DNA from: Nemertoderma westbladi
Lineage: Eukaryota > Animalia > Xenacoelomorpha
DNA length: 40,599 nucleotides
Direction: 5' to 3'
Assembly: GCA_032718475.1 (NCBI GenBank)
Contig: JAUCBJ010001366.1
Span: forward strand, 1 to 40,599
Positions 1-31,978 of the stretch are shown here, one piece after another. The position numbers and the translations under genes were made by a program. The notes under the pieces were generated by a model that was not told the DNA's origin, did no database searches, and worked only from the letters and a program-made list of their open reading frames with translations. How positions within the stretch are numbered: position 1 is the first letter of the stretch; each line of letters begins with the position of its first letter.

Positions 1-1194
1 ATTAATGTTTGTGTCCCTCATTAATGTTTGTGTCCCTCATTAATGTTTGTGTCCCTCATTAATGTTTGTGTACCTCATTAATGTTTGTGTCCCTCATTAA
101 TGTTTGTGTCCCTCATTAATGTTTGTGTACCTCATTAATGTTTGTGTCCCTCATTAATGTTTGTGTCCCTCATTAATGTTTGTGTACCTCATTAATGTTT
201 GTGTCCCTCATTCTTGTTTGTGTCCCTCATTAATGTTTTGTATCTCATTAATGTTTGTGTCCCTCATTAATGTTTGTGACCCTCATTAATGTTTGTGTAT
301 CTCATTAATGTTTGTGTACCTCATTAATGTTTGTGTCCCTAATTAATGTTTGTGTCCCTCATTAATGTCTGTGTCCCTCATTAATATTTGTGTCCCTCAT
401 TAATGTTTGTGTACCTCATTAATGTTTGTGTCCCTCATTAATGTTTGTGTATCTCATTAATTTTTTTGTATCTCGTTAATGTTTGTGTCCCTGATTAATG
501 TTTGTGTCCCTCATTAATGTTTGTGTATCTCATTAATTAATGTTTGTGTCCCTCATTAATGTTTGTGTTCCTCATTAATGTTTGTGTACCTCATTAATGT
601 GTGTGTCCCTCATTAATGTTTGTGTCCCTCATTAATGTTTGTGTACCTCATTAATGTTTGTGTACCTCATTAATGTTTGTGTCCCTAATTAATGTTTGTG
701 TCCCTCATTAATGTTTGTGTCCCTCATTAATGTTTGTGTACCTCATTAATGTTTGTGTCCCTCATTAATGTTTGTGTCCCTCATTAATGTTTGTGTACCT
801 CATTAATGTTTGTGCTCCTCATTAATGTTTGTGTCCCTCATTAATGTTTGTGTACCTCATTAATGTTTGTGTCCCTCATTAATGTTTGTGTCCCTCATTA
901 ATGTTTGTGTACCTCATTAATGTTTGTGTACCTCATTAATGTTTGTGTCCCTCATTAATGTTTGTGTCCCTCATTAATGTTTGTGTACCTAATTAATGTT
1001 TGTGTACCTCATTAATGTTTGTGTCCCTCATTAATATTTGTGTCCCTCATTAATGTTTGTGTCCCTCATTAATGTTTGTGTCCTATATCAATGTTTATGT
1101 CCCACATTAATGTTTGTGTCCCTCATTAATGTTTGTCCCACATTAATGTTTGTGGCGCTGATAAATATATGTCCCTCATTTAATGTTTGTGTCC
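1..1194. repeat. 19-bp minisatellite (attaatgtttgtgtccctc)n, ~62 copies, truncated by the window edge
   Basis: Unit read directly; common variants gtgtacctc and gtgtatctc; degenerates from ~1080 and ends in taatgtttgtgtccAG at 1196. Confidence 0.97.
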
Positions 1195-1196
1195 AG

Positions 1197-28100: not shown

Positions 28101-31100
28101 CATGTCCACTCTGGTATGGGTATCTATCCTCCACTCACTTACCTCCCCGTGTCCACTCTGGTATGGGTATCTATCTTCCACTCACTTACCTCCCCATGTC
28201 CACTCTGGTATGGGTATCTATCTTCCACTCACTTACCTCCCCATGTCCACTCTGGTATGGGTATCTATCTTCCACTCACTTACCTCCCCATGTCCACTCT
28301 GGTATGGGTATCTATCTTCACTCACTTACCTCCCCCGTGTCCGTCCACTCTGGTATGGGTATCTATCTTCCACTCACTTACCTCCCCATGTCCACTCTGG
28401 TATGGGTATCTATCTTTCACTCACTTACCTCCCCATGTCCACTCTGGTATGGGTATCTATCTTCCACTCACTTACCTCCCCATGTCCACTCTGGTATGGG
28501 TATCTATCTTCCACTCACTTACCTCCCCATGTCCACTCTGGTATGGGTATCTATCTTCCACTCACTTACCTCCCCATGTCCACTCTGGTATGGGTATCTA
28601 TCTTCCACTCACTTACCTCCCCATGTCCACTCTGGTATGGGTATCTATCTTTCACTCACTTACCCCCCCCCCCCCCCCCGTGTCCGTCCACTCTGGTATG
28701 GGTATCTATCTTCCACTCACTTACCTCCCCATGTCCACTCTGGTATGGGTATCTATCTTCCACTCACTTACCTCCCCATGTCCACTCTGGTATGGGTATC
28801 TATCTTCCACTCACTTACCTCCCCATGTCCACTCTGGTATGGGTATCTATCTTTCACTCACTTACCTCCCCCGTGTCCGTCCACTCTGGTATGGGTATCT
28901 ATCTTCCACTCACTTACCTCCCCATGTCCACTCTGGTATGGGTATCTATCTTCCACTCACTTACCTCCCCATGTCCACTCTGGTATGGGTATCTATCTTC
29001 CACTCACTTACCTCCCCATGTCCACTCTGGTATGGGTATCTATCTTCCACTCACTTACCTCCCCATGTCCACTCTAGTATGGGTATCTATCTTTCACTCA
29101 CTTACCTCCCCCGTGTCCGTCCTCTCTGGTATGGGTATCTATCTTCCACTCACTTACCTCTCCATGTCCACTCTGGTATGGGTATCTATCTTCCACTCAC
29201 TTACCTCCCCATGTCCACTCTGGTATGGGTATCTATCTTTCACTCACTTACCTCCCCCGTGTCCGTCCACTCTGGTATGGGTATCAATCTTCCACTCACT
29301 TACCTCCCCATGTCCACTCTGGTATGGGTATCTATCTTCCACTCACTTACCTCCCCGTGTCCACTCTGGTATGGGTATCTATCTTCCACTCACTTACCTC
29401 CCCATGTCCACTCTGGTATGGGTATCTATCTTCCACTCACTTACCTCACCATGTCCACTCTGGTATGGGTATCTATCTTCCACTCACTTACCTCCCCATG
29501 TCCACTCTGGTATGGGTATCTATCTTCACTCACTTACCTCCCCCGTGTCCGTCCACTCTGGTATGGGTATCTATCTTCCACTCACTTACCTCCCCATGTC
29601 CACTCTGGTATGGGTATCTATCTTTCACTCACTTACCTCCCCATGTCCACTCTGGTATGGGTATCTATCTTCCACTCACTTACCTCCCACGTGTCCGTCC
29701 ACTCTGGTATGGGTATCTATCTTCCACTCACTTACCTCCCCATGTCCACTCTGGTATGGGTATCTATCTTCCACTCACTTACCTCCCCATGTCCACTCTG
29801 GTATGGGTATCTATCTTCCACTCACTTACCTCCCCATGTCCACTCTGGTACGGGTATCTATCTTCCACTTACTTACCTCCCCATGTCCACTCTGGTATGG
29901 GTATCTATCTTCCACTCACTTACCTCCCCATGTCCACTCTGGTATGGGTATCTATCTTCCACTCACTTACCTCCCCATGTCCACTCTGGTATGGGTATCT
30001 ATCTTCCACTCACTTACCTCCCCATGTCCACTCTGGTATGGGTATCTATCTTCCACTCACTTACCTCCCACGTGTCCGTCCACTCTGGTATGGGTATCTA
30101 TCTTCCACTCACTTACCTCCCCATGTCCACTCTGGTATGGGTATCTATCTTCTCTGTCGATACCGTGGTTACTTTCCACATACTTGAAGGCCTGGTCCAT
30201 GAGTCCCCCACTGCATCCCATATTACCGAACTTTCGGGAACAATCGATAAGGTTCTGTTCGCTGAGTGATACCAGTGTACCGGTACTCCTGAATACCTGA
30301 CCCTCCAGAGATCCAGTCTAAGATATAAATATATTTATTACTGTTGAAGTACACTTCATACTTTTAATATTAAGTGTTGTGTTTGTATGTAACGAAATTG
30401 TTGGCGCAAGACAGTTGAAAACAAAAAGGATAAATTTATTGAGACTGTCACATCATATTGATGTGTGGTCTTCATTCGTGTGTTCTCATAAATTTTCAAT
30501 CTCATAAATGTTCTCAAGTTTTCATAAATAATGCTATCAATGTTATCAATCGCTTACAAGTACTAAAGGCCCAGCAGGATCCACATTGCGCTTGGTTCAT
30601 TAACTTACAGTACTAAAGGCCCAACAGGATCCACATTGCGCTTGGTTCATTAACTTACAGTACTAAAGGCCCAGCAGGATCCACATTGCGCTTGGTTCAA
30701 TAACTTTCAGTATTAAAGGCCCAGCAGGATCCACATTGCGCTTGGTTCATTAACTTACAGTACTAAAGGCCCAGCAGGATCCACATTGCGCTTGGTTCAT
30801 TAACTTACAGTACTAAAGGCCCAACAGGATCCACATTGCGCTTGGTTCAATAACTTTCAGTATTAAAGGCCCAGCAGGATCCACATTGCGCTTGGTTCAT
30901 TAACTTACAGTATTAAAGGCCCAACAGGATCCACATTGCGCTTGGTTCATTAACTTACAGTACTAAAGGCCCAGCAGGATCCACATTGCGCTTGGTTCAA
31001 TAACTTACAGTACTAAAGGCCCAGCAGGATCCACATTGTGCTTGGTTCATTAACTTACAGTACTAAAGGCCCAACAGGATCCACATTGCGCTTGGTTCAA

Positions 31101-31978
31101 TAACTTTCAGTATTAAAGGCCCAGCAGGATCCACATTGCGCTTGGTTCATTAACTTACAGTATTAAAGGCCCAACAGGATCCACATTGCGCTTGGTTCAT
31201 TAACTTACAGTACTAAAGGCCCAGCAGGATCCACATTGCGCTTGGTTCAATAACTTTCAGTATTAAAGGCCCAGCAGGATCCACATTGCGCTTGGTTCAT
31301 TAACTTACAGTACTAAAGGCCCAGCAGGATCCACATTGCGCTTGGTTCATTAACTTACAGTACTAAAGGCCCAGCAGGATCCACAGTGCGCTTGGTTCAT
31401 TAACTTACAGTACTAAAGGCCCAGCAGGATCCACATTGCGCTTGGTTCTTCACTTCAGTTACAGCACCTTGGTGTCTCCAATCTACGCTGTCTGCCACAT
31501 CAACGTTGGCTGGGGGAATGTATCTTATTCCTGTACGATTGGCCGACATCTGGTAGCCATTCATCATCTTTCGAAATTCGTGGTTATCCTATTGGATACA
31601 ATTTAGAAAAGGCTGATAATAATATTAATTACGCCAATTATTGCCAACCAACTACAATTTTGCATATGTAGAAATTTAAAACCGATTGAAAGTACTAACA
31701 AAGTGTTTAAAGTAGTGTGCTTACGCAATTGCACTAACCATATCGGTAAACTGGTTAATCCCCAATCTGTAGCTTTTCAACCCCTGGTCCGCTAGTTTGT
31801 TGTGTTTTATGATGTAATCGAGGTTCTTGTGGAAGATAAGATTTCGAATAAGTTCTTCTTCCTCTGAGTCGTATTGTTTGTTGTACAGCCGTTTGTAGGT
31901 GAAGAATTCTTCTGAGGCCGACATGGGGTAGGCATAACTGACGACCGCCAACAGGGCTAAAACTAGTAGAGCCTTCAT
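21970..31978 (-). CDS. CTSL: Cathepsin L-like cysteine protease (papain family C1A), 332 aa; join(31978-31739, 31588-31409, 30317-30117, 22933-22765, 22178-21970)
   Basis: Exons of 240+180+201+169+209 = 999 nt join in frame with GT-AG introns; signal peptide [22 protein letters not shown] motif ([20 protein letters not shown]), [16 protein letters not shown] (catalytic Cys), [10 protein letters not shown] (His), YWIVKNSWG (Asn). Confidence 0.95.
22765..22933 (-). CDS. CTSL: Cathepsin L coding exon 4
   Basis: Acceptor gtatttcag, DDFPCRY...[19 protein letters not shown], phase-1 donor CAG|gtaacg. Confidence 0.93.
23012..23568 (-). mobile_element. 5'-truncated, decayed non-LTR retrotransposon (RTE-like ORF C-terminus) in cathepsin L intron 3
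   Basis: Minus-strand translation [46 protein letters not shown]...[11 protein letters not shown]...DRELWR with two in-frame stops; (TAG)3 tail; 18-bp direct repeat cattaataatattttaaa at 22994-23011 and 23580-23597 as probable TSD. Confidence 0.8.
23694..23837 (+). repeat. Dispersed repeat, copy 2 (homolog of 3867-4025)
   Basis: Same collinear blocks as the copy upstream of the MFS gene, in the same orientation. Confidence 0.65.
23881..30152 (-). repeat. 47-bp minisatellite (52-bp variant interspersed), ~130 copies; the unit is the last 36 nt of cathepsin L exon 3 plus the first 11 nt of the intron
   Basis: Minus-strand unit GAAGATAGATACCCATACCAGAGTGGACATGGGGAG|gtaagtgagtg; the exonic part encodes [12 protein letters not shown]. 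Confidence 0.98.
30117..30317 (-). CDS. CTSL: Cathepsin L coding exon 3
   Basis: Acceptor atttatatcttag; TGSLEGQ...[13 protein letters not shown]...[13 protein letters not shown]...YPYQSGHGE; donor GAG|gtaagt at 30116. Confidence 0.93.
30553..31448 (-). repeat. 50-bp minisatellite, 18 copies; the unit is the last 40 nt of cathepsin L exon 2 plus the first 10 nt of the intron
   Basis: Minus-strand unit GAACCAAGCGCAATGTGGATCCTGCTGGGCCTTTAGTACT|gtaagttaat, encoding [13 protein letters not shown]; units fall every 50 bp from 30551 to 31401. Confidence 0.98.
31409..31588 (-). CDS. CTSL: Cathepsin L coding exon 2 (catalytic Cys)
   Basis: Acceptor tatccaatag; [11 protein letters not shown]...[28 protein letters not shown]; donor gtaagt at 31408. 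Confidence 0.94.
31739..31978 (-). CDS. CTSL: Cathepsin L coding exon 1 (signal peptide and I29 propeptide)
   Basis: [16 protein letters not shown]...ERFNIN...GINQFTDM; donor gttagt at 31738. Confidence 0.93.

Follow-up and report, generated by a model that had tools for sequence, protein, structure and literature searches.

Mirage-type minisatellites at exon ends of two neighbouring genes in Nemertoderma westbladi, one of which is probably removed as a new intron

Tandem repeats with a unit that extends across an exon-intron boundary are described from amphioxus as mirages, in the genes for Adh3, the globins BflGb6 and BflGb9, troponin C and PGBD5; they leave splicing undisturbed, their origin is unclear, and they have been proposed as a source of introns (PMC3087553; PMC3902484). 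Variable number tandem repeats (VNTRs) across exon-intron boundaries are listed for human genes as well, namely F7 intron 7 (37 bp, 5-9 copies), an interferon-induced gene (25 pseudo-sites), CBS, LMNB2 and PDGF (PMC1557585). Intron gain by the duplication of exon sequence bearing AGGT (the Rogers model) has been demonstrated in vivo (PMC3265369), and in an "imprecise" form of intron gain a latent site near the duplication is activated and coding sequence is lost (PMC3443670; PMC2812944). Here we compare with these systems four large tandem arrays, A1 to A4, in contig JAUCBJ010001366.1 of Nemertoderma westbladi, analysed as one stretch of 40,599 nt without any N (the window). The window holds three genes, encoding an SV2-like MFS transporter, a cathepsin L and CERT. 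Tandem Repeats Finder (TRF) recovered arrays with unrelated units of 19, 56, 47 and 50 bp, 21,956 bp in sum, as an earlier annotation of the sequence (the original prediction) had described them (about 22 kb). We consider it probable that A2, A3 and A4 are of mirage type, each grown from a single duplication by unequal exchange, with A3 and A4 as passengers and A2 as a likely new intron, and that A1 is a separate case. The pattern of arrays at exon-intron boundaries is already published and is neither new nor lineage-specific; the occurrence of the same class in lancelet and human genes speaks against the lineage-specific process that had been proposed for it.

The cathepsin L gene, on the minus strand, was modelled as five coding exons of together 999 nt (332 aa), with GT-AG introns and zero internal stops: exon 1 (31739..31978; signal peptide and I29 propeptide), exon 2 (31409..31588; QCGSCWAF motif), exon 3 (30117..30317), exon 4 (22765..22933) and, from the gene model, exon 5 (21970..22178). 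A4 (30553-31459 by TRF, 50 bp x 18.2, annotated here as 30553-31448; minus strand) occupies most of the 1,091-nt intron 2, and its unit consists of the final 40 nt of exon 2 plus 10 intron nt, with the donor GTAAGTTAAT. A3 (23882-30152, minus strand; 47 bp x 130.6 by TRF) occupies most of the 7,183-nt intron 3, with a unit made of the final 36 nt of exon 3 plus 11 intron nt and the donor GTAAGTGAGTG. All 130 full copies of A3 keep the GTAAG of the donor, as do 13 of the 17 full copies of A4; in the other four of the 17 it is broken (GA).

The stretch from cathepsin L to CERT is present in five sequencing runs from three studies, four of them with at least half of its words, and none of the runs is recorded as RNA. 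Four runs (X1, X2, X3 and X4) were aligned to two stretches that include the edges of the arrays only. Introns and intergenic DNA are covered by X1, X2 and X4, here called DNA-like; X2 and X4 are one sample, and the assembly may derive from X1 or X2. X3, which carries the label "DNA?", holds exact joins of cathepsin L exons and is without the intergenic DNA 2392-3822, from which we infer that it is cDNA-like. For 30055-30660 it gave a single record, a 2,196-nt contig of depth 301, in which exons 2, 3 and 4 are joined and only one 40-nt copy is present, next to unique sequence of exon 2. The donor used in this spliced contig (one record) is at both arrays that of the first copy, at 31408 for A4 and at 30116 for A3, in agreement with the original prediction, which had placed the seeds of these two arrays across the donors of exons 2 and 3 and had taken the first copy as the functional one. 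A second, distal donor of A3 or A4 is absent from the contig, one record in which rare forms would be lost, as contigs drop rare splice forms. Since the presumed transcript takes the first donor, A3 and A4 are likely to be harmless passengers.

A3 and A4 are mirage-type minisatellites; they add new and exceptionally large cases to a class already known. As in the amphioxus mirages, the unit spans the exon-intron boundary, the splice signal is repeated and normal splicing persists, and the units of 47-50 bp fall within the amphioxus range of 10-160 bp; in copy number A3, with 130 copies and 6.3 kb, differs from BflGb6, for which 3-6 copies are given (PMC3087553). The human exon-intron VNTRs likewise have the authentic donor in the first unit and later, identical donors that are mostly silent, and the use of the first donor at A3 and A4 can be ascribed to the same 5'-to-3' selection of donors (PMC1557585). 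The copy numbers of the arrays reach about five times that of the largest human VNTR listed (PMC1557585), and in cathepsin L two introns next to each other carry an array.

Three further observations concern the cathepsin L introns. Long stop-free frames on the plus strand through A3 were rejected as genes, as they are explained by a unit without stops. At 23054-23581 (minus strand) intron 3 further holds decayed remnants that match DUF6451 (E 6e-7) and probably come from the end of a LINE-type element. At 30124-30558 the depth of X1 is 14, as compared to 26-27 at the transporter, and X1 may hold two diverged haplotypes at intron 2.

The SV2-like transporter is encoded by an open reading frame (ORF) of 539 aa at 4180..5799 (plus strand), uninterrupted in the DNA; an alignment with SV2A (E 1.5e-50) takes in residues 33-358 and 371-538, and a protein search with the transporter gave one match, at 29% identity. 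A2 (5747-19330, plus strand; 56 bp x 242.7 by TRF) begins 53 nt ahead of the end of the stop codon, and its unit comprises the last 53 coding nt, including the TAA (5797-5799), plus TGA. The TAA is kept in all 242 full copies, and 234 of them preserve CCAG|GT. A 54-bp variant of the unit ending in TTAAA occurs only as the second copy and close to the end of the array distal to the gene, where the flank continues TTAAATTCG; from its positions and flank this variant is likely the older unit.

Contig 21 of X3 (1,708 nt, depth 141) follows the window from 4001 to 5520, where it makes a GT..AG jump into an array unit, with 49 letters that fit the array side and three ambiguous ones. When the length of the array-side match was determined at the 234 AG sites of A2, it came to 64 nt at 228 sites, 69 at two and 8 at three, and to exactly 49 at a single one, 19281/19282; in the 191 nt left beyond that match, each of the 161 31-mers occurs just once in the window. 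A contig can pass only where k-mers are unique. Because of the sole 49-nt match and the unique 31-mers, the acceptor was placed at the last copy (19281). On this evidence A2 is likely removed as a new GT-AG intron of 13,761 nt (5521..19281, plus strand), with a cryptic GT in coding sequence as donor (AAC|GTGATG) and the CCAG| of the last A2 copy as acceptor. It would hold codons 448-539 and nearly all of A2, and would be followed in the spliced form by a predicted alternative last coding stretch of 26 codons and a stop (19282..19362, plus strand). The original prediction of an array on the MFS stop codon stands at the level of the DNA, the unit including the TAA. Its statement that the ORF is left intact is likewise true of the DNA, but is not confirmed beyond that, as contig 21 departs from the ORF after 5520.

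The same joint might have been produced by a genomic deletion allele, or by a template switch of reverse transcriptase at the three nucleotides GTG, which fit both sides of it; A2 would then be a harmless array of stop codons in the 3' untranslated region. The label of X3, the weak donor, the array units that X3 holds and the single contig are all compatible with such an origin. It nevertheless appears doubtful to us, as the joint ends in GT..AG and X3 behaves as cDNA, with its exact exon joins and the missing intergenic 2392-3822. Moreover, the joint, of depth 141 in X3, has depth 0 in X1, X2 and X4, the contigs of which continue through 5521-5769. X3 itself is without cover at 5572-5730, a gap that proves nothing on its own.

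If A2 is spliced out as proposed, the last 92 codons (448-539) would be exchanged for 26 unrelated residues, for which no Pfam match was found. The skipped part aligns to the C-terminus of SV2A up to residue 538, with a weak MFS_1 score (E 0.001), and has hydrophobic peaks at 439-457, 488-506 and 516-534, which we take from the topology of SV2 to be helices 10-12; the splice halves the first peak. The new intron would therefore cut the last three predicted membrane helices and truncate the transporter. Since the skipped codons align to the SV2A C-terminus and hold hydrophobic peaks, the continuous ORF should be the older state; an uninterrupted coding state before the duplication is supported by the homology to SV2A through residue 538. 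X6, a run with another organism label, gave zero matching records, so that no pre-duplication allele was found there, by which its absence is not proven. The X1 haplotype differs from the window at nine coding positions of the transporter, seven nonsynonymous (mostly conservative) and two synonymous. The resulting ratio of nonsynonymous to synonymous polymorphism (pN/pS) of about 1.1 is in line with weak constraint (p = 0.007 against an omega of 0.15). Overall, A2 appears to harm its gene. The contig being unbroken, and minor branches being pruned by assemblers of this kind, the spliced form would seem to predominate in X3.

Several points count against this account of A2. The joint comes from one contig of one run labelled "DNA?" and is flagged "between: not known"; its far end at 19281 is deduced and not aligned directly. 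Array units are present in X3 too (depth 893 at 5781), and unspliced or other forms therefore exist. The donor GTGATG is weak, with six of nine consensus letters as opposed to seven for the array's own CAG|GTGGTT, and with nine single-nucleotide polymorphisms an omega of 0.3 is not excludable (p = 0.08).

A precise form of the intron, with donor 5792 and an unchanged protein, was not seen, although a minor precise form could escape the contigs; the observed donor, 5521, lies 271 nt upstream. A2 fits an imprecise intron gain by tandem duplication. As in the described gains of this kind, the unit is exonic and contains AG|GT, and the AG of the last copy is the likely acceptor (PMC3265369; PMC3443670; PMC2812944); unlike in those described, there are 243 copies over 13.8 kb, a stop codon in the unit, and about three helices that would be lost. 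With the BflGb6 mirages A2 shares edge copies that escape homogenisation (PMC3087553). It spans a stop codon, however, and not a splice site as the amphioxus mirages do, and it appears to alter splicing. We ascribe to A2 a mirage-like origin, but do not class it as a mirage, since in X3 the transporter ORF is abandoned after 5520.

Just 5' of the transporter ORF lies a very high-copy short element (3823-4140; depth 46,000-76,000 in the DNA-like runs, and found in X3 too). A 59-nt copy of it (76%) is located at 23709-23767, 115 bp from the far end of A3.

The internal structure of the arrays is informative on their growth. The divergence of the copies from the first one is unrelated to position in the three arrays (Spearman 0.04, 0.01 and -0.05), and none of 241 A2 copies is identical to the first. 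An exact block of 28 units occurs twice in A2 (shuffled maximum 6 in 100 shuffles), the longest blocks of A3 (8 units) and A4 (4 units) being not above shuffles, and edge copies are unlike interior ones, with the 54-bp variant at both ends of A2 and truncated last copies. The lack of a gradient, the 28-unit block and the distinct edge copies suggest that interior copies were exchanged unequally and homogenised. Iterative templating outward from the exon, unit by unit, which the original prediction had given as an example, is unsupported, given the lack of a gradient and the growth of A2 by blocks.

Could the arrays be assembly artefacts? Their exact lengths are those of the assembly, summed contig depth does not equal copy number, and the duplicated block of A2 might be an inflation by the assembler. 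We give this explanation almost no weight, however, as the units stand at about 7-150x unique depth in X1, X2 and X4, from two studies, and variants such as a GTCC insertion are shared among runs; because the units recur in DNA runs of two studies, the arrays are not merely an assembly product. The depth ratios, which again are summed depth and no copy number, are 148 in X1 and 42 in X2 for A2, 120 and 64 for A3, and 15 and 7 for A4, and the 2-4-fold lower values in X2 are a weak hint of variation in array length.

Selection, finally, could keep the arrays as banks of splice and stop signals that tune the output of the genes, as had also been proposed; the donor intact in every A3 copy and the TAA in every A2 copy would seem to agree with this. 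The intact signals are, however, already explained by the 93-96% identity of the copies. Moreover, only first donors are spliced in X3, four of the 17 A4 donors are GA, A2 seems to damage its own gene, and the rough depth ratios vary 2-4-fold among samples. Such selection is thus very improbable.

For A2, A3 and A4 we propose instead that one short tandem duplication, covering an exon end plus donor or stop, was the likely seed, that it probably persisted by sparing the reading frame, and that the arrays were then likely enlarged by ordinary unequal exchange. Units of 47, 50 and 56 bp are not multiples of three, and such duplications wholly within an exon would therefore frameshift. In A2 the unit carries AG|GT, and the array would then have come to be excised as a 13.8-kb intron, truncating the protein. 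Inspection by eye of the flanks for long direct repeats as seeds revealed none, with about 0-1 nt at A2 and A3 and a loose AAGT-AA match at A4. The hexamer TTAATG is found in three of the four array units (A1, A2 and A4), in A2 and A4 where one unit meets the next, and at 25 sites in non-array DNA; it was not adopted as a junction mechanism, the sharing being borderline (p = 0.053, 5,000 shuffles). A perfect two-copy duplication of 56 bp at 38931-39046 also contains TTAATG.

The statement that the window has no other large array is correct for arrays of at least 18 copies; seven small tandem loci of 2-4 copies were found by TRF in addition, away from known coding edges. We evaluated the position of the arrays with a null model in which units of 50 bp fall on 14.2 kb of non-coding sequence with 14 coding edges, and here the numbers speak against chance placement and hence against the simple account given above. 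Under this model, a duplication that spares the frame has a probability of 0.047 of lying across an edge, so that the probability of at least three such cases among four is 4e-4, or 0.013 for at least three among 11 if the seven small loci are added. The loci at edges are large in three of three cases and the other loci in one of eight (Fisher p = 0.024), and all three arrays lie at 3' ends and reach only 1-11 nt beyond the signal (post hoc, about 0.013 under a uniform distribution). The p-values are inflated, because the window was selected for its exon-edge pattern, and the excess at exon ends in this one selected window is no more than suggestive. A genuine bias, of seeding or of expansion, may nevertheless be at work that the present account does not cover. 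If real, the excess would more probably reflect a biased expansion of GC-richer, transcribed seeds than biased seeding. The GC content of the units is 0.57, 0.49 and 0.46, as compared to 0.28-0.31 in nearby introns and the tested intergenic stretch. The simpler alternative that the original prediction had itself named, a high rate of duplication with survival of ORF-sparing events and GC-richer seeds, fits best, and the excess at exon 3' ends in the window remains.

A stronger claim would be that breakage coupled to transcription or splicing, followed by recopying just past exon 3' ends (donors and stops), seeds arrays far over background. Three of the four large arrays at exon 3' ends and none at starts or verified acceptors, the breakpoints 1-11 nt past the signal, and the G-skewed sense strand of A3 (+0.48) are in line with it. 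A G skew is absent from A2 (0.0) and slight in A4 (+0.13), however, so that a skew of the kind expected for the R-loops invoked earlier is seen in one unit of three. The evidence comes from one selected window, A1 does not fit, and a common junction signature is lacking except for TTAATG. The lack of a gradient with distance from the exon and the growth by blocks count against such a process, which, as the class occurs in humans and lancelets, would not be lineage-specific in any case. The inner structure of the arrays lends no support to a dedicated exon-edge mechanism, and we regard it as unlikely. Slightly less likely still is a wider scenario, in which DNA past exon 3' ends, at donors as well as stop codons, is a hot spot of transcription-coupled duplication in an intron-poor animal, the satellite-scale products spawn introns, and A2 is a 13.8-kb intron seen at the moment of its origin while it destroys an otherwise intronless transporter gene.

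A1 (1-1194, plus strand; 19 bp x 62.8 by TRF, at least 63 copies) is cut by the start of the window and has a decayed right end. The acceptor that it had been thought to abut, at 1194/1195, was rejected. A high-copy dispersed repeat (1170..2390, ends approximate; inverted repeats at 1225-1394 and 2003-2174), likely nested non-autonomous transposons, overlaps and adjoins the end of A1. The depth of 1120-2391 is 459-17,643 in the DNA-like runs versus 10-28 for unique DNA, about 540-610x unique at 1133 (X1 and X2) and 123-477x unique in the right flank 1279-1437. A 1,089-nt X3 contig, from another copy that is 90-95% alike, aligns from 1170 across 1194/1195 without a joint, and the frame at the right end of A1 gave no Pfam match. 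On account of depth, jointless contig and lack of a Pfam match, the right end of A1 meets a dispersed repeat and not an exon. A1 is likely a separate case, a satellite tied to the dispersed repeat; its left end lies beyond the window, and on present evidence it stands outside the exon-edge pattern. Non-autonomous Helentrons carrying satellite-like arrays are described from oyster (Cg_HINE), and A1 resembles these in that it borders a high-copy dispersed repeat sharing its last 25 nt, a likeness that concerns the right flank and assigns no element class (PMC7492417). Within the repeat, 1722-1894 is a perfect two-copy duplication of 83 bp; the repeat-family copy in X3 skips 88 nt at 1742-1831, which makes it likely that the doubling is local and young.

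The third gene, CERT (34280-32319, minus strand; PH and START domains), is a single coding exon of 653 aa, with a best protein identity of 48-49% among the 120 listed of 1,779 matches. CERT and the SV2-like gene lack introns in the DNA, whereas cathepsin L has four. In vertebrates both CERT and SV2 have many introns. Together this suggests a gene-wise loss of introns in N. westbladi. Beyond CERT, inverted arms of 151 nt (69%) at 34695-35365 flank a short frame that looks integrase-like by eye and has no Pfam match, and a weak THAP match (E 0.002) at 35307-36362 (plus strand) is followed by broken frames, perhaps of a decayed THAP-type transposase. Three copies of about 150 bp with about 75% identity at 37505-37955 were missed by TRF. 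An Rfam search gave zero matches.

In the literature searched, which included few subscription papers, neither a genome-wide test of mirage enrichment nor a stop-codon array turned intron was found. Taken by themselves, the donor arrays A3 and A4 are unremarkable examples of a class already described. Mirages have so far been described as harmless and of unclear origin; in the window, two genes side by side carry very large ones (130 and 243 copies), of which A2 is likely not harmless, a stop-codon array that probably makes up most of a new intron and would truncate the protein. If confirmed, A2 would show, cleanly and at a recent stage, how a tandem array gives rise to an intron imprecisely, and would offer a natural test of how the first donor and the last acceptor are chosen where hundreds of sites are identical. 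With so many such arrays, the genome would, furthermore, permit testing whether exon ends bias the seeding of arrays or just their expansion.

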